A DNA stretch of 64,000 nt from Longimicrobiales bacterium (GTDB lineage Bacteria > Gemmatimonadota > Gemmatimonadetes > Longimicrobiales > Gaopeijiaceae). This document shows, in pieces, positions 1,887 to 36,701 of the stretch. The notes below the pieces were generated by a model, which saw only the letters and a program-made list of their open reading frames with translations, was not told where the DNA came from and searched no databases. The stretch covers positions 1,342,195-1,406,194 of the forward strand of contig OZ250165.1 in assembly GCA_965238005.1 (NCBI GenBank). The letters run 5' to 3'. Each line of letters begins with the position of its first letter. Within the stretch, counting starts at the first letter, position 1. Position numbers and translations under genes: made by a program.

Positions 1887-4316
1887 CTAGAACACCGGCT
1901 GCCTCCGCTTCCGCACCACGAAGAGCCCTTCACGCATGCTGGTGAAGACGATCACTCCGCTCTCGAAGAACGGGTAGTTGCTCCAGGAGCCCGCGAACCC
2001 GGGAGAGTTCTCGCCCACCGGAACACTGTCGAAGAATCCTACTTCCTTCGGGTTGGCGGGATCGGAGATGTCCAGGATTCGGAGACCGCTCACGTAGTTG
2101 GACTGATACATGAACTGGCCCTGGATGTAGAGGTTGTGGTCGGATGACGACGTCTCGCCCATGTGCTCCTTGACCAGAACGGGGTCATCCAGGTCCTCGA
2201 TGTCCCACACCAGCGTCCGAGTCCGCTCCACTCCGGAGAGCTCGTCCAGCTCGTCGTTGACGTAGAAGTAGCGGTGGTCGTCCGAGATCCAGCCCTGGTG
2301 GACGTAGCCTGGGTTGGGGTAGGTCGCCGTGGCGATCGGAACGGGGTTCGATTTGTCCGAGACGTCGGAGATGCTGATCGCCGTCTCGTTGGCACCGAAG
2401 CACACTTCCTTCCCCTGATGCTGCGTGTCTGGACCCTTGTACACGATGCACTGGGCGTCGTGGCTGTATCCGGTTCCGGTATTCCCCGTGGCCGGGTCCG
2501 AAAAGCACCCGGCGAAGGTGGGGTTGGTGGGATCGCGGACGTCGATCATGTGGAGACCGCCACCGCACGTCTCGCCACCCATGCTCGCGCCGACGACATA
2601 AGCGAAGCCCGAGCCCTCGTTCATCACGATGTTGTGGGCACTGAAGATACCGTCGTAGTGGGCCGTCTCTCCGAACGTCACGGGCGGATTCTCCACGTCG
2701 CGGAGCTGACGGAGATCGAAGATCTGGACTCCGTGCGGCCCGGCGCCGTCTGCTACGATAAAGGCATGGTCGGCGTACACCTTCACGTCGCGCCACATGT
2801 TCGCCGTGGCACCTTCGGTAAGGGGAAGCTCGCCCAGGTAGAGTGGGTTGGCCGGATCCTGGAGGCTGACGAAGGTCATGGCGTCCATGCGCCCCACCAG
2901 GGCGTACTCGATTCCAGTGTCGGGATCGGTCCAACCCCAGATGTCGTTCACCATGATTCCCCGGGCTCCGCCCAGGTCCTTTACCGGCAGGAAAGAGACC
3001 AGGTCGACCTCGGAACAGTCGAAGCCACCGACGGTCCCGACGTCACTGCAGTCCTCGGGTGACCCGAGGATCCCCTCCATGCCACCGCCCTCGTCGATGA
3101 GCGATTCGATCACCCCCCACTCCCCGACGGCGCTCTCGCGTCCATACAGGTTGCCCACTCCCTCGAAGAAGTCGGCTCCCGGGGCTCCCACGACGGCGAG
3201 GTCCTCGCCGCCGGCGATGGCCATTCCCATGAAGGACCTCGGAGACGTCATAGTCAGTGTCTGCAGCTCCTGCCAATCACCCCCACTGGAAGCCCGGAAG
3301 ACAAAGGCCATTCCGGCAAGGGGTGCACCCACGAAGAGATCCTCGCCGGCCCTGGCCACGGCCATGCCGAACCCGGACTGGCGAACGGCCGTCGAGGCCG
3401 TGATGCGCCCGGCCTCCGACCACTCCCCCGCGGCGCTCGGAGCGAAGCGGTGCACCACCCCGTTGATCTCGTTCCCTAGGGGCGCCCCGATGAGCGCCTC
3501 GTCACCGTCGAGAACGACCGAATGGCCGAACAGGCCGGGCCCCTCTCTACCGGACGTGACCCGGGCGACTTCCACGAAGTCGCCAGCCTCGAGCTCGAAG
3601 ATGTAGGCGGATCCGGCCGCCGGCGGTGGGCCTCCGGGAAGCATGCCGGGGAAAGGTCCCGGTGCCCCGACGAGGAGCCGCTCCCCGTCGAAGGCCAGGG
3701 CGGCGCCGAACCTCTCACCCGCCCGGACGTCCGAGCCTCCGATCGTGGCGATCTCGGTCCAGGCTCCGCCGAGCATCCGGAAGACGACGACCGCGCCGCC
3801 TTGCTCCGCATGACCCGGCGCCCCCACCAGCGCGAAATCGCCGCTCAGCACTACGGAGCCCCCGAGCTCGTCTCCAGCCGTCCGCGTCGCCGTCCGCAAT
3901 ACGGCAGTCTGCTGCCACTGTGCCTCCGGCTCGGAACGCCGGAACATGTAGGCTGCGCCCCGCCCTTCCTGCGTCTTGGGGGCCCCCACGAGCATGGTGT
4001 TGCCGTCCACGGCCAGCGCCTGTCCGAAGCCGTCACCCACCTCGACGGAGTCCGAGGTCACCACGGCCTTCTCCTCCCACCTGTTGTCGGTGTTCCCGAA
4101 GACGTGGACGCTGCCCGTATGGTTCGGGGGGATGGGGAAGAAGGAGATTTCCCCCGGACGACCAACGAATACCTCACCGCCCTGGACGACGACGGCCGCT
4201 CCGAAGCCTGCGGAGCCCATGGAGCGTCCGCCGGTCACGGAGGTCTGTGCCGCAACCGGCGTGCTCGAAAGGAAAAGGCCGAAGCCTAGAGCGATCAAAC
4301 GAAAGGTGCTCTGCAT
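1887..4316 (-). CDS. secreted protein with an FG-GAP-like repeat N-terminal half and an LVIVD-repeat (choice-of-anchor B-like) C-terminal half
   Basis: 809-aa ORF with signal peptide MQSTFRLIALGFGLFLSSTPVAAQ. It has repeated G(D/E)xFGxA(L/V)A..G..(L/A)(V/L)GAP units. The C-terminal part has repeats of the type YVSGLRILDISDPANPKEV and HGVQIFDLRQL. Confidence 0.7.
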   Translation of the reverse strand: MQSTFRLIALGFGLFLSSTPVAAQTSVTGGRSMGSAGFGAAVVVQGGEVFVGRPGEISFFPIPPNHTGSVHVFGNTDNRWEEKAVVTSDSVEVGDGFGQALAVDGNTMLVGAPKTQEGRGAAYMFRRSEPEAQWQQTAVLRTATRTAGDELGGSVVLSGDFALVGAPGHAEQGGAVVVFRMLGGAWTEIATIGGSDVRAGERFGAALAFDGERLLVGAPGPFPGMLPGGPPPAAGSAYIFELEAGDFVEVARVTSGREGPGLFGHSVVLDGDEALIGAPLGNEINGVVHRFAPSAAGEWSEAGRITASTAVRQSGFGMAVARAGEDLFVGAPLAGMAFVFRASSGGDWQELQTLTMTSPRSFMGMAIAGGEDLAVVGAPGADFFEGVGNLYGRESAVGEWGVIESLIDEGGGMEGILGSPEDCSDVGTVGGFDCSEVDLVSFLPVKDLGGARGIMVNDIWGWTDPDTGIEYALVGRMDAMTFVSLQDPANPLYLGELPLTEGATANMWRDVKVYADHAFIVADGAGPHGVQIFDLRQLRDVENPPVTFGETAHYDGIFSAHNIVMNEGSGFAYVVGASMGGETCGGGLHMIDVRDPTNPTFAGCFSDPATGNTGTGYSHDAQCIVYKGPDTQHQGKEVCFGANETAISISDVSDKSNPVPIATATYPNPGYVHQGWISDDHRYFYVNDELDELSGVERTRTLVWDIEDLDDPVLVKEHMGETSSSDHNLYIQGQFMYQSNYVSGLRILDISDPANPKEVGFFDSVPVGENSPGFAGSWSNYPFFESGVIVFTSMREGLFVVRKRRQPVF

Positions 4317-4495
4317 CTGTCGTGCTCCTAGCGAATGCGGCCCTCAATCTCGAAAAGGAGGCCCGCTTGCGCCAGAGTCCATACGAGCGGCGAAGGCTCG
4401 GAGGTTCGACCGTACGACGGAGGATTGAAGCCGCACTGCGGTCGATACATGTTCCCGAAGGGCCGTTCACGCCCTCCTCTAACAGGGGTCGGGAC

Positions 4496-5497
4496 ATGCG
4501 CGCAGCCGTCCTGGAGACAACCGCCGACATCGATAGTGATCCACTCCACGTCCGTGAGGTGGACGATCCGAGCCCGGGACCCGACGAGGTCCGAGTCCGG
4601 GTCCGTGCTTGTGCGGTCTGCCGGACCGACCTCCACGTCATCGAGGGCGACCTTCCGGAGCAGAGGAGACCGGTCATACTCGGGCACCAGGTGGTGGGTA
4701 TCGTGGACCAGGTAGGGCAGGGCTGCACCCGATTGGAGCACGGGATGCGCGTGGGGATCGCCTGGCTTCGTGAGACCGACGGGACGTGTCGATTCTGCCT
4801 GAGCGGGCGGGAGAACCTCTGCGCAGATTCTCGATACACGGGATATCATGCGGACGGCGGATACGCGGACTTCGCAACGGTGCCGGAGGCGTTCGCCTAC
4901 GACCTTCCAGAGGGCTTCGACGACGTATCCGGTGCGCCCCTCCTTTGCGCAGGCCTAGTGGGATACAGGGCTCTCGAGCGGGCGGAGGTGCCAGAGGGAG
5001 GAAGGCTCCTGCTCGTCGGCTTCGGATCGTCCGCCCACATCGTGCTTCAGCTCGCTCTTGGTCGTGGTCATGAAGTCTTCGTTGTCACTCGGAGTGACAA
5101 CCACGTGCGACATGCTCTCGAGATGGGGGCGGGATGGGCCGGAAACGATCTCCGGGATCTGCCCGTGAAGGTGGATAGCGCTGTGCTCTTCGCTCCGGTG
5201 GGGCATCTGGTACCGCCCATCATGGCCGCACTCGAGCGGGGAGGCACGCTGTCCATTGCCGGGATCTATCTGAGCGACGTGCCCCCGATGGAGTACGAGG
5301 CGCACCTCTTCCACGAGAAGCAGATCCGATCGGTCGAGGCCAATACGCGGGACGATGGCCGTCGACTGCTCGAAGAGGCGGGGTCGGCGGGCGTCCGTCC
5401 CCACGTGACGACGTACGATCTGGGAGACGCCAACCGGGCGCTTCAAGACATGAAGCACTCGCGGCTCCGCGGAACGGGAGTTCTGGTGCTGGAGTAG
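4496..5497 (+). CDS. zinc-dependent alcohol dehydrogenase family oxidoreductase
   Basis: In-frame ATG at 4496 inside ORF 3626..5497 starts MRAAVLE. Motifs include CAVCRTDLHV, GHQVVG and a structural-Zn Cys cluster CRFCLSGRENLC. The upstream part of the ORF is Arg/Pro-rich frame noise. Confidence 0.85.
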   Translation: MRAAVLETTADIDSDPLHVREVDDPSPGPDEVRVRVRACAVCRTDLHVIEGDLPEQRRPVILGHQVVGIVDQVGQGCTRLEHGMRVGIAWLRETDGTCRFCLSGRENLCADSRYTGYHADGGYADFATVPEAFAYDLPEGFDDVSGAPLLCAGLVGYRALERAEVPEGGRLLLVGFGSSAHIVLQLALGRGHEVFVVTRSDNHVRHALEMGAGWAGNDLRDLPVKVDSAVLFAPVGHLVPPIMAALERGGTLSIAGIYLSDVPPMEYEAHLFHEKQIRSVEANTRDDGRRLLEEAGSAGVRPHVTTYDLGDANRALQDMKHSRLRGTGVLVLE

Positions 5498-5832: not shown

Positions 5833-6477
5833 ATGAGCAAGATGCGATTTCTTCTAGCCGCCGTTCCGCTGGTCTTGCTGGGCTCGAGCCCGAGGTCCGT
5901 TCAAGAGCCCGCCATGAGTTTTTTCCTTACGAGCACGGGTCCCGGAAACGGAGCCGACCTGGGTGGTCTCGAGGGCGCAGACCGGTACTGCCAAATGCTG
6001 GCCCGGGCCGTGGGCGGCGATGACGAACGCACGTGGCGGGCCTACCTGAGCACCACCGGAGGGGGTGGGGTCGACGCACGAGACCGTATCGGTGACGGCC
6101 CGTGGTACAACTCCCGTGGCGTCCGGATCGCCGACAACGGGGCGAACCTGCACAGCGACTCGAACAACCTCACCAAGGAGACCCAGCTCTCCGAGATGGG
6201 TTTGACGATCAACGGCCGGGGCGATAGCCCCAACCGCCACGACATCATCACGGGCTCTCAAATGGATGGCACAGCGGCTTCAGCCGGAGACGACACGACC
6301 TGCTCCAATTGGACCAGTCACGGAGAGGGTAGTGCACTGGTGGGCCATCACGACCGTCAAGGCGGCGGGACGAACCCCACGTCCTGGAACTTCGCGCACG
6401 CCTCCAGGGGCTGCAGCCAGGAGAAACTCCAGGGCACGGGCGGCGACGGCCTCTTCTACTGCTTCGCCATCAACTGA
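5833..6477 (+). CDS. secreted protein with endostatin-like (C-type-lectin-fold, DUF1554-like) domain
   Basis: 214-aa ORF with a signal peptide. FFLTS...GGLEGADRYCQMLARAVG...WRAYLST resembles the collagen XVIII endostatin N-terminal motif [21 protein letters not shown]. Four Cys are spaced similarly (C..., TTCSNWT, GCS, YCFAIN). Confidence 0.55.
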   Translation: MSKMRFLLAAVPLVLLGSSPRSVQEPAMSFFLTSTGPGNGADLGGLEGADRYCQMLARAVGGDDERTWRAYLSTTGGGGVDARDRIGDGPWYNSRGVRIADNGANLHSDSNNLTKETQLSEMGLTINGRGDSPNRHDIITGSQMDGTAASAGDDTTCSNWTSHGEGSALVGHHDRQGGGTNPTSWNFAHASRGCSQEKLQGTGGDGLFYCFAIN

Positions 6478-6671
6478 CGCGGTGGGCTCCTCCGGAGCTG
6501 GGGGAGTCCAAGTCCTCGATGAAGTCCGTCGCCTCTTCGGCGCTCGGGCGGATGACGGAGAGGACGCCCAAGGTGGCCAGGATGAGAGCGAGAATAATGC
6601 GCGTCATGCTGTGTGTGCGTATACTAAAGTCTCACGTAGGTTCCTGGCACCGACGAGAAGGAGGGCTCCCC

Positions 6672-7331
6672 ATGCGACTACGCTGTACTGCGTTCATCTT
6701 CATCATTTCCTTGGGACTCGCTTTCGCCCAACCCGCGGCCGCGCAGGACGAAGGATCCACCCTCATCGCCGTGGGTGAGATGGCGCCGGACTTCTCCCTG
6801 CCCGGTGCAACCCGGTACGGAATCCTACAGGATCCGGTCCGCTTGTCGGATTTGAGGGGAGAGGCGGTGGTACTGGCGTTCTTCTTCAGAGCGCGAACGC
6901 GTGGCTGAACGATCCAAATGGAAGCGTACCGTGATCAGTACGCAAGCGTATTCCGGGGCGGCCGAGGAGTAACGGTCATCGGCATCAGCGACGACTCGCC
7001 CGAAGAGCTGGCCTCTTGGGCTGCCGACGCCGACTTTCCCGTCCTGTTCGCCCACGACAAGGGTCACGCAGTGGCCCAGGCCTATGGTCTCGGGCTCCGC
7101 TCCAGCGGGAACATCGCGTCCCGGTCGGTGATCGTGGTCGGTCCGGATGGCAGGGTCGCGTGGACCGCCCTCCAGTTCCGGGGGATCGACCCCTCGGCCT
7201 ACGAGGAGCTCGGAGCCGAAGTCGCCCGTGTGGCGCCGGCACTGGACGAAGGCATGGAGGATCTCCCGCAGGCCATGGACGACGGGTTCGATGGAGAGCG
7301 GCTCGAGGGAATCGGACTCCCCGACTGCTAG
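6672..7331 (+). CDS. secreted peroxiredoxin (AhpC/TSA/BCP family), candidate selenoprotein with Sec encoded by UGA 6906-6908
   Basis: ORFs 6519..6908 and 6918..7331 share a frame and are split only by TGA. AAGGAGG precedes ATG 6672, and the signal peptide is MRLRCTAFIFIISLGLAFAQPAAAQ. Read through the TGA, the sequence is LAFFFRARTRG-U-TIQMEAYRDQY...VIGISDDSPEEL...ASRSVIVVGPDGRV, which matches the Prx T-x-x-C active site and the conserved Arg. Confidence 0.6.
6920..6954 (+). promoter_or_regulatory. candidate bacterial SECIS hairpin
   Basis: Upper stem is GCGUAC (6924-6929) / GUACGC (6938-6943) with an 8-nt loop CGUGAUCA. Lower helix is GGAA (6920-6923) / UUCC (6951-6954). The upper stem begins 16 nt after the UGA. 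Confidence 0.45.
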
Positions 7332-7337
7332 CCTAGC

Positions 7338-7901
7338 CTAGTCGGTCCCCTCCAGGGCGGTCATGACCGCCGCCTCGATGTCCTGGTCCGGTCCGACTCC
7401 CGTATAGGTCACGACGCCCTCGGTGTCCAGGACCACGATGTAGGACGTGGCAGGGGCCAGGAAGGCCCGCACCGCACGGCCACCTTCGTCCCAGACCGTA
7501 GCATAGTCGACGGGATGCTCCTCGAGTGCTCGCTTGACCGATCGGGGCGACTGCGACACGGCAACGCTGATTGCCAGGAACTCGATCCGGTCCCGGTACC
7601 GGTCGTACACGTCGATCATCTGCGGGAGGAGCGCCTCGCAGATCTCGCACCATCGGGCGTAGAACTCGATCAGGAGGGGCTTTTCCCCGACGTGGTCCGC
7701 CAGCTTGAACGGATTCCCATCCAGGTCCTCGATCTCCACCAGCTCCGGTCGCTCGCCCAGGGCGATGCCCACTTCTCCCCGCTTTTGTGCGGAGGCATCG
7801 GCGGGCAGGATCGCGACCATCGCGAGTGCCATGGTAGCGGCCAAAGAGGGAAGGGCATCCGTAAACGGACGCCACGGGCTACGGCGATCGATCGTGTTCA
7901 C
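7338..7901 (-). CDS. TlpA/ResA-like periplasmic thioredoxin-fold thiol:disulfide oxidoreductase
   Basis: This is the C-terminal part of ORF 7338..8852, with the motif FYARWCEICEALLP (CxxC). An in-frame GTG at 7901 overlaps the ccdA stop (GTGA) and gives a signal-like N-terminus ...LAATMALAMVAILPADASAQ. Confidence 0.8.
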   Translation of the reverse strand: MNTIDRRSPWRPFTDALPSLAATMALAMVAILPADASAQKRGEVGIALGERPELVEIEDLDGNPFKLADHVGEKPLLIEFYARWCEICEALLPQMIDVYDRYRDRIEFLAISVAVSQSPRSVKRALEEHPVDYATVWDEGGRAVRAFLAPATSYIVVLDTEGVVTYTGVGPDQDIEAAVMTALEGTD

Positions 7902-8617
7902 AGTACCATGCCCACCTGTACGAAGTAGTACTCGGCCATCACCAGCATAATCACCGCAGCGGCCCTTTTGATCCAGACCATCCAGGCACCGGACGATGGG
8001 AGGGCCACTCCGAAGCCGGAGAACAGGCCCACGCCCACCAGCAGAGCCGTCATTCCAAGAGAGAAGACGAAGAGGTAGAGGAAGCCCATCGCTCCCCCCT
8101 GGGTCGCTGCCACCCAGGTGAGGACCACGGCGAACGCCGGAGCCCCACAGGGTGCCGCCACGATCCCCGATGTGGCTCCCAGGAGAAACACCGCGGGGTA
8201 GGAGCCGCCTCCCAAGCCACCGGCCCATTCGAGCCAGCGCTTCGGCGCGGAAACCGGGATGATGTCGAACATGGCCAGGCCGAAGACCAGGAGCAGGTTG
8301 CCGATGGCGAAACGAGCCCACGGGCTGGCGCTGACCGTCCCGAACAGGGTACCCGTCAGGCCGGCGATGAGCCCTACCGTGGCGTAGAGCAGGGCCAGGC
8401 CCAGGACGTACGTGAGCGTGAGACCCACGACCCTGGACTTCGGAGCGTCCTGTTCCGCCGTACCTGCCAGTATCGACGCCGTGATGGGGATCATCGGATA
8501 GATGCAGGGTGTCAGGCTGGTCAGGACGCCGGCGCCGAACAGCGTCGCCAGCGACAGGAGCGGGCTCTGGGAGAGGCTCTCCGACAGGCCGGCACTCTGA
8601 AGCATCAGGTAGGGCAT
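7898..8617 (-). CDS. ccdA: cytochrome c biogenesis / thiol-disulfide electron transporter CcdA (DsbD family)
   Basis: 239-aa polytopic membrane ORF. It has the LTSLTPCIYPMIPIT motif and a second Cys in VAAPCGAP. Confidence 0.85.
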   Translation of the reverse strand: MPYLMLQSAGLSESLSQSPLLSLATLFGAGVLTSLTPCIYPMIPITASILAGTAEQDAPKSRVVGLTLTYVLGLALLYATVGLIAGLTGTLFGTVSASPWARFAIGNLLLVFGLAMFDIIPVSAPKRWLEWAGGLGGGSYPAVFLLGATSGIVAAPCGAPAFAVVLTWVAATQGGAMGFLYLFVFSLGMTALLVGVGLFSGFGVALPSSGAWMVWIKRAAAVIMLVMAEYYFVQVGMVL

Positions 8618-12023: not shown

Positions 12024-13748
12024 CTAGAAGTAGTACCGCAGCCCGAGCTGGACCTGGAACTGCAGCACGAGGTTGTTCCCCAACAGGCCCTCGGTTCCGA
12101 AGGTGTCGTTCACGCCGTAGACGATGCGCTGGCCCGCCGCATCGAACCGGGCCGGCACCAGCAGGTCCGAGTCCGCCCCAAAAACGCCCGTCCAGCGGCC
12201 CAGGCCACACACGCCCGACGTGAAGTCGGCGTCGTCCGCCGATGCGTCGCAGAATAGCTGGCCGATGCCGTTCAGCACGTTGAACAGGTCCACCTGCACC
12301 TCGAGCCTCTGGGAGCTCTGGAATTCGAACCCCTTGGAGAGTCTCATGTCCAGCTGGTGCGTCCAGGGGAAGCGGCACGTGTTCCGCTCCAGGATCCTGC
12401 CCTGGAAGTCGCCGATGCAGCTGTACTCCTCCAAGATCGATCGGTACACGTCCCGGTCCTCGTCGTCGTCGGTCGGGAGATTCGCGGCGCTGAAGACAAA
12501 TAGCCGGTCGTTGAACCGGACTCCGTCACCATTCAGGTCGTCGTCGCCCACGGGCGACCACGGGCGGCCGCTCTGGCTCCGGAGGATCGCACTGGCCTGG
12601 ATCCCCCAGGGGAAATTCACGAAGCTGGAAAAGACCAAAGTGTGCTCGCGGGAGAAGCTGCTACGGCCCCATCCCCTGTCGAAGTCGCCGATCCCGCCGA
12701 TGTCGTTGGGGCCGAAGATGCCGATGCTGGTGCGTGAGTAGCCCCTGCCTGCGGTGCAGCATGTGTACGGCGAGTTGTCCCAGGCCCGGGTCCAGGTGTA
12801 GGAGCCCTGGAGCTGGAAGTTGTCGTTGACCTGTTGCCTGGCGTTGGCGGTGAGGGTCCAGGTCCGTGCTCGACCGTCGTTGAAGTTCACCAGGACGTCG
12901 CCGAACTCGAGGTTTCGGCGAGAGGCTGTGCTGTTTGCTTGAGTGGGGTCGAACTCGGTTGCGGGGCTGAAGATCCGGCGGCCGGCCTCGCCGTCCAGCG
13001 TGAACTGGGGCTCGCGGAGGTTGAGGTTGCGAACCGTGTAGAGGCTGTTGCTCTGGCTGTAGATGAGGTCCACCGAGAGCTGGGTCCGGTCCCCGATCAG
13101 GGTCTCGAATCCCACGTTGGCCTTGAGGTGCTCGGGGAGCTCGAAGCTTTCGCTCCAGAGCGTGTACACCGGAACCCCGCCGGCACCCGCGTCTGCACAG
13201 GTGATGGGATTGTCGAAGCCGTCTATGCCCCAGCCGCTGAAGCCCTGCGGGGACGGTGGAGCGTCGGGGTCGCCATCCAGGATGGAGCCGTTACAGATCA
13301 CCTCGAGGATGGGGCGCTCGGTCTGGAGGACGTCCCCCCCCACGACCCCCGGCACGGTTCCGTAGAAGAGGCCCGCTCCCGCGCGGATCACACGTCGGCC
13401 ATCACCGTCGACGTCATACGCGATGGAAACCCTGGGGGAGATGTTGTTGTCGTCGGTGGGCGCGAATCCGGTCTGGAACCCGAAGGCGCGCTCCACGTCG
13501 ACCACGGGCGTCGGGCTGTCGCGGAACGACTGGAGGTCGTACCGGAGGCCCAGGATGGCCGTCAGCCTCGGCGAAACCTGCCACTCGTCCTGCACGTAGG
13601 CCGACCACTCCATGACGTCGAACGCCGCCCGCGCGATCCCGCCTCCTTCCTGGAAGGGACGGAAGTACGCCGACGGCCGGAAGCTGCGGAAGTCGTCCAG
13701 GTTGGCGAAACGGAATTCGCCGGCGCCCTCGTTCTGTGAGCCCGGGTT
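12024..13748 (-). pseudogene. TonB-dependent receptor, 5'-truncated (C-terminal beta-barrel only)
   Basis: The ORF ends ...QLGLRYYF, the typical TBDR terminal Phe. My hand translation upstream of Met 13613 continues TBDR-like (NLDDFRSFRPSAYFRPF...AAFDV) up to stop 13749-13751. No plug or N-terminal domain is present, and unrelated DNA follows. Confidence 0.7.
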
Positions 13749-34472: not shown

Positions 34473-36701
34473 ATGAGCCCAGATATTCCAACCTGGCAGC
34501 CCATAGATCCGGCCAACGAGGGCCTGCCCGAGCACGTCGACGCCGTGCTGGATTCCTTCGATTCCACCACGGGCTGCGTCGTTCTCCTGGTGGCGCCTGA
34601 GATCGATCGACGCTGGGGGGCGGACGTGAGCCTGCTCGTCGCCCGGGGCTGGGCCGCCAAGGGGCGAAGCGTCCTGCTCGCGGACGCGTCCCTCGAGGAC
34701 CCGGTTCTCCACGAGTCGGTAGACGGCACGAATGATGAGGGCGTGTCCGACGTCATGCTCTACGGAGCGTCGGTGAAGCGTGTGGCCCGATCCGTCGGGG
34801 GCGGAATCTTCTTTGCTCCGGCCGGGACCCCTGTGGGCGACGCCGAGGAAGTTCTGACGCACCCAAAGTGGGATACCGTGATCAGCGGCTTCCGGGAGGT
34901 GGGGGCGGTGCTCCTGCTGCATTTGTCAGCGGCCACGACCGGAGCTCGGGCCCTCCTGGACCAGGCGGCGGGAGTCATCGTCGTCGCGGAGGGGGTTGGG
35001 GATGTGTCGTCAATCCTGGGCTCCGCGTCGGATCGGATCCTGGCCGTGCTCGGTCCGGAGGCTGCTGGTGAGATCGCCACGCCGGTCGTGGAGCCTGAAG
35101 TCGACCTGACGTCCGAGCCGGAGCCTGAGCTCGTAGCGCCGTCTGAGGCAGAGTCAGAACCAGAGCCGGAGGTCGAGACTCCCCTCGAGGCCGAAGTCGT
35201 TCCGGCCGGCGTCACGGAAGAGCCGGCTGGTGACGCGGGACTCTTCTCGATGGAGGGACTCCCCGACTCAACCGGCAGTGCGGCGGACGAAGTCGACGAT
35301 TCGGAGGGGCTCAGTCTCGAAGCCGTGGCAGGATCGCAGTACGACGCGTCCGACGAAGCCCAAGCGGAGGCTCCTCTCGCCGGAGCCCTTGATGAGATGG
35401 AGCCCTTGGAGGTTGAGCCAGTAGAGGTGACCCCCCCAGAGGCGGAGGAGGCGGAGGAGGTGGAGGCCGCGGAGGTCGCGGAGGTGGAGGGACCGGCGAC
35501 AGCCGATGAGGCGGCCGTCGAAGAGCCGGGCCTGCCAGCCGTCGAGGGTGTGACGGGATCCAAGGTCGAGATGGACGAGGCGGCGGCGGCCGAGGATGCC
35601 CATCTGGACAGGGACTTCGAGACGGGGGCCGGATTCGATTTGGAGGACGCTCCGGACGACCTCAGCTTCGGAGACGGCGACCTCGAGGTGGAAGCCAGCC
35701 CCCTCGCGGAAGAGGTCCTTCCGGAATGGAGGCTGGCGGCAGCGGCAGCGAGAGATCTCAGCGCCGCCGCGGGAGACTCGGCCTTCGACGATCCCGATCT
35801 GGGTTCGCCCGAGCCTGTGGCACCCCTGGCCACCAGTGATGCTGCTCCCGGGGATCCTTCGGTGGGCGCCGGCGAGTCCATCGCCGTGGATGCGGCCGTC
35901 GAGGCAATGGGAGCCGGCACTGATGCGCTCCCCGAAGACACGGTTGGCGAGACTGCCGTCGACCTGGAGGAAGGCCCGCCTCACAAGATGACGGGGTTGG
36001 AGGAGTTGGATCGGCGGCGAAAGCGGGGAGCCAGGGTCCGGCAACTGCTGGTGGGCATGGCCACAGCGCTGATCGTGGGGGGCGGAGGCATCACGGCCGC
36101 GTACTTCGGCTTCATCAACATCCCCGGGGTCACACCGCCTGAGCGCGTGCGCTCTGCAGTGCCACCCCCGATTGAGCTACCCGGCCCGACCCCCGAGACG
36201 CCAGTGATAAGCCACGTGCTCACGGTCGATGCCTGGCGCAGCATGGAAACGGCCTCGAGTACGGTGGACGCGCTCCGGGGGCGGCTTCCCGAGCTTCTGT
36301 TCTTCGTGACCGTTATCGAGGTGGCTGGGGCCGACCAATACGCGCTGCTCGCAGGCCCCGCCTTCAGCGCAGTGGAGGCAGACGCCCTGAAGGAGCCTCT
36401 GGCTGAGGTCCTGGACCGCCTCAATCCGGCTATGTGGACCGTTCAGGAGGCGAGATACTCGTTCTTCTTCGGCGAGTACGCCGAGGCGGCGGACGCTGCC
36501 GGCAGGGTCCAGTCGCTGGCCGTTCTCTCCATACCGGCTCACGTCCTGGAGGTGAGCTATGCCGATGGAACCACGGGGCTGCGCGTCTATGGCGGAGCTT
36601 TTGTGGACGAGTTCCAGGCCGTTGCGATGGGGCGACTCCTTCGTGCGAACGACCTGGGTGATGTACGTCTGACTCTACGGAGGGGCCGACTGCCCCAATG
36701 A
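34473..36701 (+). CDS. paralog B: degenerate BY-kinase/MinD-like domain, long acidic linker, TM helix and two SPOR domains
   Basis: ATG 34473 in ORF 34428..36701. The N-domain is VVLLVAPEIDRRWGADVSLLVARGWAAKGRSVLLADASLEDPVLHESV (no Walker A Lys). A ~330-aa Glu/Asp/Ala/Pro-rich region follows. The TM helix is LLVGMATALIVGGGGITAAYFGFI, followed by two SPOR-like units. The stop overlaps an smc-like ATG (ATGA). Confidence 0.75.
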   Translation: MSPDIPTWQPIDPANEGLPEHVDAVLDSFDSTTGCVVLLVAPEIDRRWGADVSLLVARGWAAKGRSVLLADASLEDPVLHESVDGTNDEGVSDVMLYGASVKRVARSVGGGIFFAPAGTPVGDAEEVLTHPKWDTVISGFREVGAVLLLHLSAATTGARALLDQAAGVIVVAEGVGDVSSILGSASDRILAVLGPEAAGEIATPVVEPEVDLTSEPEPELVAPSEAESEPEPEVETPLEAEVVPAGVTEEPAGDAGLFSMEGLPDSTGSAADEVDDSEGLSLEAVAGSQYDASDEAQAEAPLAGALDEMEPLEVEPVEVTPPEAEEAEEVEAAEVAEVEGPATADEAAVEEPGLPAVEGVTGSKVEMDEAAAAEDAHLDRDFETGAGFDLEDAPDDLSFGDGDLEVEASPLAEEVLPEWRLAAAAARDLSAAAGDSAFDDPDLGSPEPVAPLATSDAAPGDPSVGAGESIAVDAAVEAMGAGTDALPEDTVGETAVDLEEGPPHKMTGLEELDRRRKRGARVRQLLVGMATALIVGGGGITAAYFGFINIPGVTPPERVRSAVPPPIELPGPTPETPVISHVLTVDAWRSMETASSTVDALRGRLPELLFFVTVIEVAGADQYALLAGPAFSAVEADALKEPLAEVLDRLNPAMWTVQEARYSFFFGEYAEAADAAGRVQSLAVLSIPAHVLEVSYADGTTGLRVYGGAFVDEFQAVAMGRLLRANDLGDVRLTLRRGRLPQ

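Follow-up and report, generated by a model that had tools for sequence, protein, structure and literature searches.

Selenocysteine (Sec) has previously been described at the peroxidatic position of bacterial peroxiredoxins. The TxxU type (PF00578/COG1225 Bcp) accounted for 43 genes in the Sargasso Sea set (PMC1088965) and for 91 proteins from 78 organisms in the survey of Peng et al. 2016 (PMC5029168), and PrxU of Eubacterium acidaminophilum is cited as a biochemically verified Sec-peroxiredoxin in a further paper (PMC13188914). Here we examine a gene at positions 6672–7331 of a 64,000-nucleotide stretch of contig OZ250165.1 from a Longimicrobiales bacterium (the whole stretch is hereafter the window). 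An earlier note, made from the letters alone, had proposed this gene as a candidate selenoprotein, a secreted peroxiredoxin with an in-frame UGA in place of the peroxidatic Cys. That reading is supported by Sec/Cys pairing among homologues, by conservation of the TGA, by a downstream hairpin tied to the TGA, and by an unaltered genetic code, and we conclude that 6672–7331 is very probably a single gene for an exported peroxiredoxin of the BCP/PrxQ type with Sec at the peroxidatic position.

The locus resembles four described systems, each in part. With the Sec-peroxiredoxin (PrxU) family it shares the AhpC/TSA fold, Sec in a T-x-x-U arrangement, a hairpin of the selenocysteine insertion sequence (SECIS) type within the coding region just downstream, and widespread Cys homologues; it differs in having a signal peptide, in having Phe instead of the motif Pro (in the clade of the window), and in mostly lacking a second Cys. 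The BCP/PrxQ proteins (E. coli Bcp; PDB 2ywn, 2cx3 and 3hjp; Mycobacterium tuberculosis BcpB, 5epf) provide the best sequence matches in the PDB, as well as the best structural matches to the model of a Cys homologue, whereas the protein studied here has Sec for Cys, no resolving Cys at +5, an export signal, and an acidic C-terminal tail that ends in Cys in the subclade of the window. In Caulobacter crescentus, experiments showed that the DsbD-family protein ScsB reduces TlpA and that TlpA reduces PprX, an exported peroxiredoxin of the PrxQ type (PMC3322552). An exported PrxQ-type peroxiredoxin, a TlpA-like thioredoxin and a DsbD-family transporter are likewise encoded here, as three neighbouring genes, but the transporter is a minimal CcdA-type protein of 239 aa that consists of the transmembrane domain alone, the peroxiredoxin carries Sec, and the electron transfer is suggested by synteny. 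Finally, like the SECIS elements of E. coli fdhF and fdnG, the hairpin is a stem-loop inside the open reading frame (ORF) 3' of the UGA, having a small apical loop with a G at a fixed distance, but its conserved stem is 6 bp and no conserved lower helix or bulged U was detected.

A reading frame crossing a conserved TGA

Translation yields a single frame from ATG 6672 to TAG 7329–7331, of which the sole interruption is TGA 6906–6908, at the position of the peroxidatic Cys. As the earlier note had it, ORFs 6519..6908 and 6918..7331 lie in one frame, and only this TGA and the codons ACG ATC CAA stand between them. The read-through product runs ...VVLAFFFRARTRG-U-TIQMEAYRDQYASVF...SRSVIVVGPDGRV...GIGLPDC. 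We take ATG 6672 as the start rather than ATG 6519, because a Shine-Dalgarno-like sequence precedes it and because gene callers begin the N-terminal 78-aa piece of relatives at the equivalent MRLRW. The features of the gene are as follows.

6658–6664, plus strand: Shine-Dalgarno-like AAGGAGG, 7 nt before ATG 6672, read from the sequence
6672–7331, plus strand: predicted Sec-peroxiredoxin gene, 219 codons and TAG; the product would be a BCP/PrxQ-like peroxiredoxin destined for export, with U as residue 79 (translation, Pfam, homologues)
6672–6743, plus strand: predicted secretory (Sec-type) signal peptide, MRLRCTAFIFIISLGLAFAQPAAA|QDEG, by inspection
6906–6908, plus strand: in-frame UGA at the T-R-G-U peroxidatic position, aligned with the Cys of full-length homologues
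6924–6943, plus strand: putative SECIS-type hairpin, 6-bp stem GCGUAC/GUACGC with an 8-nt loop, CGUGAUCA (RNAalifold, covariation)
7326–7328, plus strand: Cys219 at the C-terminus (...PDC), a candidate resolving Cys restricted to the subclade of the window

The predicted signal peptide has a basic n-region, a hydrophobic core of 15 residues and A-x-A ahead of Q25, and the N-termini of homologues are equivalent but vary in sequence. When U is read as C, residues 34–164 match positions 1–123 of the 124 in Pfam AhpC-TSA (E = 2.4e-25; 89.3 bits, above the gathering cut-off of 26), and the match is continuous across the TGA, in agreement with the single AhpC/TSA fold that had been proposed for the read-through protein. 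The halves fare differently on their own. The N-terminal one reaches 23.9 bits, below the cut-off, over profile positions 1–38 only, and the C-terminal one covers only positions 47–123; neither half contains the full domain, and the earlier note had already considered neither half-ORF a plausible protein alone. The gene is annotated as split in every public assembly examined, into a 78-aa piece and a piece of 120–137 aa; the JGI label of a 127-aa piece is "peroxiredoxin Q/BCP".

The protein search returned two kinds of homologue. Full-length matches (190–200 aa, 50–62% identity) contained FFPRARTRG-C-TIQM[RH]AYRDQY, with Cys at the position of the TGA, while the closer matches (69–95% identity) were all C-terminal pieces of 120–137 aa beginning MEAYRDQY (P0001 begins further downstream), i.e., products of a split identical to that in the window. 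The expected pairing of Sec with Cys is thus seen in the alignment, in which the TGA column is the peroxidatic Cys of the full-length homologues. The DNA for five of the fragments was found on 11 contigs from ENA, JGI and Logan, comprising long- and short-read assemblies of different samples; in all 11, an upstream piece of 78–79 aa is followed by TGA and by the C-terminal piece, with both pieces sharing one frame, and the genes flanking the peroxiredoxin are those of the window.

Wider scans gave a consistent result. A scan of GTDB, with one genome per species, confirmed at least 508 relatives, and in the best 80, in which the codon was read, it is TGA in every case (80/80). These 80 are nearly all labelled Gemmatimonadota (Longimicrobiales, Gemmatimonadales and Ca. 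Palauibacter), and the closest among them is a Longimicrobiales metagenome-assembled genome (MAG) with 83% identity. A metagenome scan that was deliberately seeded with a profile of Cys forms yielded 79 parsed loci, with TGA in 56, TGC in 21 and TGT in 2. Overall, 148 of the 172 related sequences parsed from independent assemblies have TGA and 24 have TGC or TGT; most of the sequences retrieved from Gemmatimonadota are in the Sec state. Among the 148 TGA forms, both flanking coding parts are kept in frame down to about 50% protein identity. Taken together, comparison of the relatives shows that the TGA and both halves of the gene are conserved across more than 100 species.

In a neighbour-joining tree, the Sec forms make up two large clades, one marine and sponge-associated ("FFF-R[AV]RT[RP]G-U"), which includes the window, and one from soil ("FFP-KARTKG-U"). 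Cys forms are mostly basal; one of them, L092 (P0002), lies beside the Sec form L039, nested in a Sec clade. On one 1.23-Mb Longimicrobiales contig (CBDBJW010000006.1) the Sec-peroxiredoxin gene occurs twice, at about 4.7 kb and about 216 kb (L023 and L024); the copies are identical around the TGA, and the gene has either been truly duplicated or been repeated by the assembly at the end of the contig. Further, four copies of the Gemmatimonadota type with an identical hairpin (L026, L027, L028 and L054) are on contigs labelled "Gammaproteobacteria bacterium" (sponge MAGs) or "Methanobacteriota archaeon", likely as a result of mis-binning or horizontal transfer.

The hairpin downstream of the UGA

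The hairpin lies where the earlier note had placed it, with stem strands at 6924–6929 and 6938–6943, the loop CGUGAUCA at 6930–6937, and 15 nt between UGA and stem. G is the second nucleotide of the loop, which begins 21 nt past the UGA, and both the position, at the consensus distance, and the G-containing loop suit a bacterial SECIS. The spacing is reportedly 16–37 nt (Zhang & Gladyshev 2005), which the geometry of the hairpin fits. By contrast, the extension of the stem by GGAA/UUCC that had also been suggested is not conserved, 62.8% of its cells being paired and its outermost pair being present in 19 of 117 sequences.

The significance of the hairpin comes from comparison with relatives and not from the single sequence. 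From 117 distinct TGA sequences, RNAalifold independently predicted the exact 6-bp stem and 8-nt loop, and pairing is complete, in 702 of 702 cells (6/6 pairs in 117/117 sequences), falling to 0.3–50% in controls with a slid register. In five sequences, the two outer pairs are altered on both sides (GAGUAC/GUACUC, ACGUAC/GUACGU and UGGUAC/GUACCA), which amounts to changes from G:C to A:U or U:A and from C:G to A:U or G:C (5 cells, 2 pairs), with no one-sided changes and no broken pairs. These double changes impose paired replacements at Ala85 and Ala91 (A/A to E/S, T/V or W/H), and therefore the constraint on the RNA overrides the protein sequence.

The codons of the hairpin point in the same direction. 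Among 85 distinct DNA sequences of Sec forms, the third-position entropy of GCG TAC CGT GAT CAG TAC (codons +6 to +11) is 0–0.16 bit, compared with 1.0–1.8 bit for most other codons of invariant residues in the gene, although some Phe, Arg and Gly codons beside the UGA are likewise low. The fixed CGT and GAT are minority codons elsewhere in the gene. In Cys forms, which encode the same AYRDQY peptide, these codons drift (TAT in 11/21, CGC in 14/21, GAC in 11/21), and the six pairs are kept in 5 of 21 Cys forms as against 117 of 117 TGA forms (Fisher p = 6e-17). One Cys form with TGC, L092 (L092:1459-1521), retains the exact 20-nt hairpin GCGTACCGTGATCAGTACGC and looks like a recent Sec-to-Cys reversion with a fossil SECIS; remnant SECIS elements of this type were described by Zhang et al. 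2006 (PMC1794560). The comparison across Sec and Cys forms shows that the hairpin is under selection both at the nucleotide level and for pairing, and only where the codon is TGA. A UGA accompanied by a covarying hairpin in more than 100 species is hard to explain without Sec-type decoding. Since the hairpin sequence is almost invariant across the family, little can be deduced about what SelB would read in it.

Active site and putative reduction in the envelope

The catalytic Thr and the downstream Arg listed in the earlier note are both present, as Thr76 and Arg151. In T76-R-G-U79, Sec stands three residues past the catalytic Thr, in a column that is Cys in the homologues and in the Bcp proteins of the PDB, while R151 (SRSVIVV) is invariant in the alignment and falls in one column with the Arg of 2ywn and 2cx3. 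These two archaeal Bcp/PrxQ proteins are the nearest solved structures by sequence (E = 7.6e-11 and 1.3e-10), and their Thr, Cys and Arg occupy the corresponding positions. The fold was modelled on the close Cys homologue P0002 (AF2), which stands for the read-through protein. The model has a confidence score (predicted local distance difference test, pLDDT) of 91.1, and its top Foldseek matches are BCP and other peroxiredoxin structures (probability 1.00, target-normalised TM up to 0.83), so the modelling shows a peroxiredoxin fold.

The active site departs from the general motif in one of the four canonical residues. The Pro of PxxxTxxC was termed absolutely conserved (PMC3322552), and the motif of Sec-peroxiredoxins is given as PxxxTxxU (PMC13188914). 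The window and the whole marine "FFF" clade (FFF-RAR-T-RG-U) have Phe at this position (Phe72 in the window), whereas Pro is present in the Cys forms and in the soil Sec clade. The protein is also not assigned by any NCBIfam model at its cut-off: it scores 56.2 bits against a cut-off of 140 for the Bcp equivalog (NF006960/PRK09437), being Bcp-related rather than an equivalog, and 36.9 bits against 270 for the PrxU equivalog (NF040737), of which it is not an orthologue.

In most Sec forms the mature protein contains no further Cys; these are therefore "1-Sec" enzymes, which would need an external thiol for reduction. The C-terminal Cys219 is shared by the window with L001, L003, L007, L008, L011, L014, L025 and L050. 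Most other Sec forms lack it, as do all of the Cys forms seen. As a resolving residue for the family as a whole it was rejected, being confined to the subclade of the window, in which we speculate that it might have this role.

A possible source of the external thiol is encoded next to the peroxiredoxin gene by two genes in convergent orientation.

7338–7901, minus strand: TlpA/ResA-like exported thioredoxin with WCEIC, convergent with the peroxiredoxin (NCBIfam ResA subfamily), the likely direct reductant
7898–8617, minus strand: CcdA/DsbD-type membrane electron transporter, upstream of the TlpA-like gene and translationally coupled to it

The TlpA-like protein matches the NCBIfam ResA subfamily below its cut-off (E = 8e-14), and its counterparts in relatives match Pfam Redoxin, AhpC-TSA or Thioredoxin_8; its motif is CxxC in 76 of 76 copies and never contains Sec. 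The CcdA-type protein matches the NCBIfam DsbD subfamily over its transmembrane part (E = 2.3e-37), and Pfam DsbD_TM is found in relatives. The GTG start of the TlpA-like gene at 7901 overlaps the TGA stop of ccdA (GTGA). The pair follows the peroxiredoxin gene immediately in 12 of 12 close loci (the window and relatives) and in 63 of the 74 GTDB loci with enough flanking sequence; in the marine clade this synteny is conserved. All parts of the envelope pathway, i.e., a PrxQ-type peroxiredoxin, a TlpA-like CxxC protein and a DsbD-family transporter, are therefore present and adjacent, with export signals assigned by inspection, and by analogy the neighbourhood suggests recycling in the envelope like that of PprX, TlpA and ScsB in Caulobacter.

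Taken together, we hypothesize the following sequence of events. In line with established bacterial Sec biology, the hairpin at 6924–6943 would serve as a bacterial SECIS that recruits SelB-GTP-Sec-tRNA(Sec), and UGA 6906–6908 would be decoded as Sec rather than as a stop, giving a precursor of 219 residues that the signal peptide would direct to the cell envelope. There, judging from peroxiredoxin chemistry, a selenolate activated by Thr76 and Arg151 may reduce H2O2 or organic hydroperoxides and be converted to selenenic acid. Since the mature protein of most members contains no Cys besides the Sec, the direct reductant of the oxidized Sec is probably the exported TlpA-like CxxC thioredoxin encoded next to the peroxiredoxin, as the gene neighbourhood and the Caulobacter precedent suggest; in the subclade of the window, a selenenylsulfide with Cys219 may come first. 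CcdA would then keep the TlpA-like thioredoxin reduced with electrons from cytoplasmic thioredoxin.

The peroxiredoxin and TlpA-like genes end 6 nt apart (TAG 7329–7331 and CTA 7338–7340), which leaves no space for an intergenic terminator, and therefore their transcripts probably overlap. The surroundings of the cluster look like a copper-homeostasis neighbourhood. The window encodes a multicopper oxidase (44–1810), a choice-of-anchor B/LVIVD protein (1887–4316, minus strand) and, within the ORF 3626–5497, a Zn-dependent alcohol dehydrogenase family protein, and the flanks of relatives L001–L010 contain genes for a small cytochrome c, HMA, DUF411 and YjbQ. Such a neighbourhood recalls the link between copper stress and envelope reductases of the Scs/TlpA type.

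Decoding of the UGA and alternative explanations

TGA is an ordinary stop codon in the window, as had been stated for 7898–7900 (minus strand) and 36699–36701. Of 31 long ORFs there, 14 terminate with TGA, and the code is therefore not reassigned. The remaining long ORFs end in TAG (15) or TAA (2); the share of TAG is high for a genome with 65% G+C, in what is a small sample of hand-picked ORFs.

Alternative to the insertion of Sec, recoding of the SECIS/SelB type might insert another residue, either Cys by way of a SelB-compatible tRNA, which has been reported for some bacteria with recoded Sec sites, or Sec and Cys in alternation with selenium supply. The comparative evidence favours hairpin-aided decoding of the UGA and is silent on which amino acid enters. 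However, such recoding is reportedly rare (Mukai et al. 2016). Moreover, a costly UGA/SECIS arrangement is unlikely to be kept for Cys in more than 100 species when a single TGA-to-TGC change suffices, as in L092, and Sec at the TxxU position of peroxiredoxins is common and experimentally verified according to PMC13188914, which cites Sohling 2001. We therefore regard the insertion of a residue other than Sec as quite improbable.

It is also conceivable that the gene is split or dead, with translation stopping at the TGA to give an exported peptide of 78 aa, and the rest being unexpressed or re-initiated at ATG 6918 to give a product of 137 aa. Gene callers do split the gene in every public assembly, and ATG 6918 is only 9 nt past the TGA. 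Yet the halves, their shared frame and the TGA are all conserved to about 50% protein identity in the 148 sequences, the full domain is in neither half, and the C-terminal piece would have neither a signal peptide nor the catalytic residue. The supposed start Met is the conserved Met of TIQM, which is found in Cys forms too and is Leu (CTG) in L065, and a covarying hairpin is not expected in a pseudogene. These observations make a split or dead gene very unlikely.

Similarly slim is the chance that the hairpin serves some purpose other than Sec insertion, for instance in mRNA stability or in translational pausing during export, while the UGA is passed by near-cognate read-through. In favour of this explanation, the stem is just 6 bp, Rfam gave no family at gathering scores in the window and nothing meaningful on 6850–7000, and binding by SelB is a prediction. 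On the other hand, strict pairing and frozen synonymous sites occur only with TGA and decay in Cys forms encoding AYRDQYA, the position and the G-containing loop suit a bacterial SECIS, and near-cognate read-through would presumably be too inefficient for an enzyme conserved throughout a phylum. Almost entirely to be discarded is the idea that the TGA arose through faulty sequencing or assembly, or as a nonsense mutation of TGC or TGT in a single strain. Although TGA is one base from either codon and Cys forms exist, 148 sequences share it, and the ENA, JGI, Logan and NCBI assemblies from which they come relied on different technologies, which refutes this idea.

Several observations nevertheless weigh against our preferred explanation, an exported peroxiredoxin into which Sec is inserted at the UGA. 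Genes for its decoding were not seen: selA, selB, selD and tRNA-Sec were absent from the window and from about 1.5 Mb of flanking sequence, which is a part of these genomes. Specifically, ARAGORN detected neither a tRNA of any kind in the window nor a tRNA-Sec in the 60 loci scanned, and tblastn with E. coli SelA, SelB and SelD found none in the window or in 172 loci with 6–10 kb of flank each. The literature searched contained no mention of Sec use in Gemmatimonadota, Longimicrobia or Gemmatimonas. By itself, the hairpin is short and thermodynamically ordinary: a single-sequence fold of 6900–6965 gives the stem, with a z-score of −0.17 that is not beyond chance, a perfect hairpin of at least 6 bp follows 9.5% of all TGA triplets in the window at +9 to +53, and no conserved lower stem was found in the 117 sequences. 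As for the enzyme, its catalytic competence with Phe in place of the active-site Pro is assumed, and the signal peptide was assigned by eye alone. Finally, the peroxiredoxin and TlpA/CcdA units are convergent and not co-transcribed, and their linkage is absent from the soil Sec clade.

TxxU peroxiredoxin selenoproteins and remnant SECIS elements are known already, and current concepts are unchanged (PMC1088965; PMC1794560). What distinguishes the present family is its Gemmatimonadota lineage, its predicted export, the change from Pro to Phe, the missing second Cys, the linkage to TlpA/CcdA, and its systematic mis-annotation. Mis-annotation affects at least 148 sequences, 80 of them from GTDB species representatives, and hides the Sec-using status of the genomes, and a family-specific model with a selenocysteine rule would repair the annotation. 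The gene points to selenium dependence in a phylum that is widespread in soil, in the sea and in sponges and that goes unmentioned in the selenoproteome surveys consulted, and to a selenoenzyme in the oxidizing envelope, where the resistance of Sec to irreversible over-oxidation would help. It also offers a clean natural case of one 20-nt stretch under joint selection as protein and RNA, with pair-preserving replacements and a "fossil" SECIS in a Cys revertant.

A broader picture can be drawn, which we put forward tentatively and find slightly easier to doubt than to accept. Gemmatimonadota might be an overlooked Sec-using phylum whose default envelope peroxidase is a 1-Sec peroxiredoxin with a dedicated TlpA-like/CcdA relay, i.e., the first extracytoplasmic selenoperoxidase pathway in bacteria. 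On this view a single SECIS would have stayed fixed ever since the clade arose, and the active site would tolerate the loss of the Pro (FxxxTxxU).

A scan for further coding-like ORFs split by TGA in the same material returned adjacent genes or antisense frames only, with a filter that also missed the true gene, and when the 1.5 Mb was searched for other hairpins with the loop of the SECIS-type element, one match was associated with a TGA, L052:5495, which is non-coding. The rest of the window consists of ordinary chromosomal genes (SMC, DnaX, RecR, DnaJ, MnmA, PRPP synthase, H+-pyrophosphatase).

One other gene was considered as a selenoprotein. At 12024–13745 (minus strand), the window has a gene for a beta-barrel like those of TonB-dependent receptors, which is 91% identical to an ORF of 667 aa in L002 and has an in-frame stop near its 5' end. 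No in-frame plug or signal region lies upstream in the window or in L002. The ORF 12024–13613 has a weak match to the NCBIfam "FCYXU motif-type" model (E = 7e-5), and it was rejected as a selenoprotein on the grounds that there is no in-frame coding sequence upstream and no Sec-like feature; a frameshift or a truncation may have affected the gene.

Just upstream of the peroxiredoxin gene, at 6478–6671, the window lacks about 600 bp that are present in the 95%-identical relative L001. The missing segment is most of a CAP-domain (PF00188) gene on the minus strand, of which the first ~24 and last ~21 codons are left; the remnant is a 45-aa ORF, 6470..6607 (minus strand), with tblastn matches at 6536–6607 and 6482–6544.

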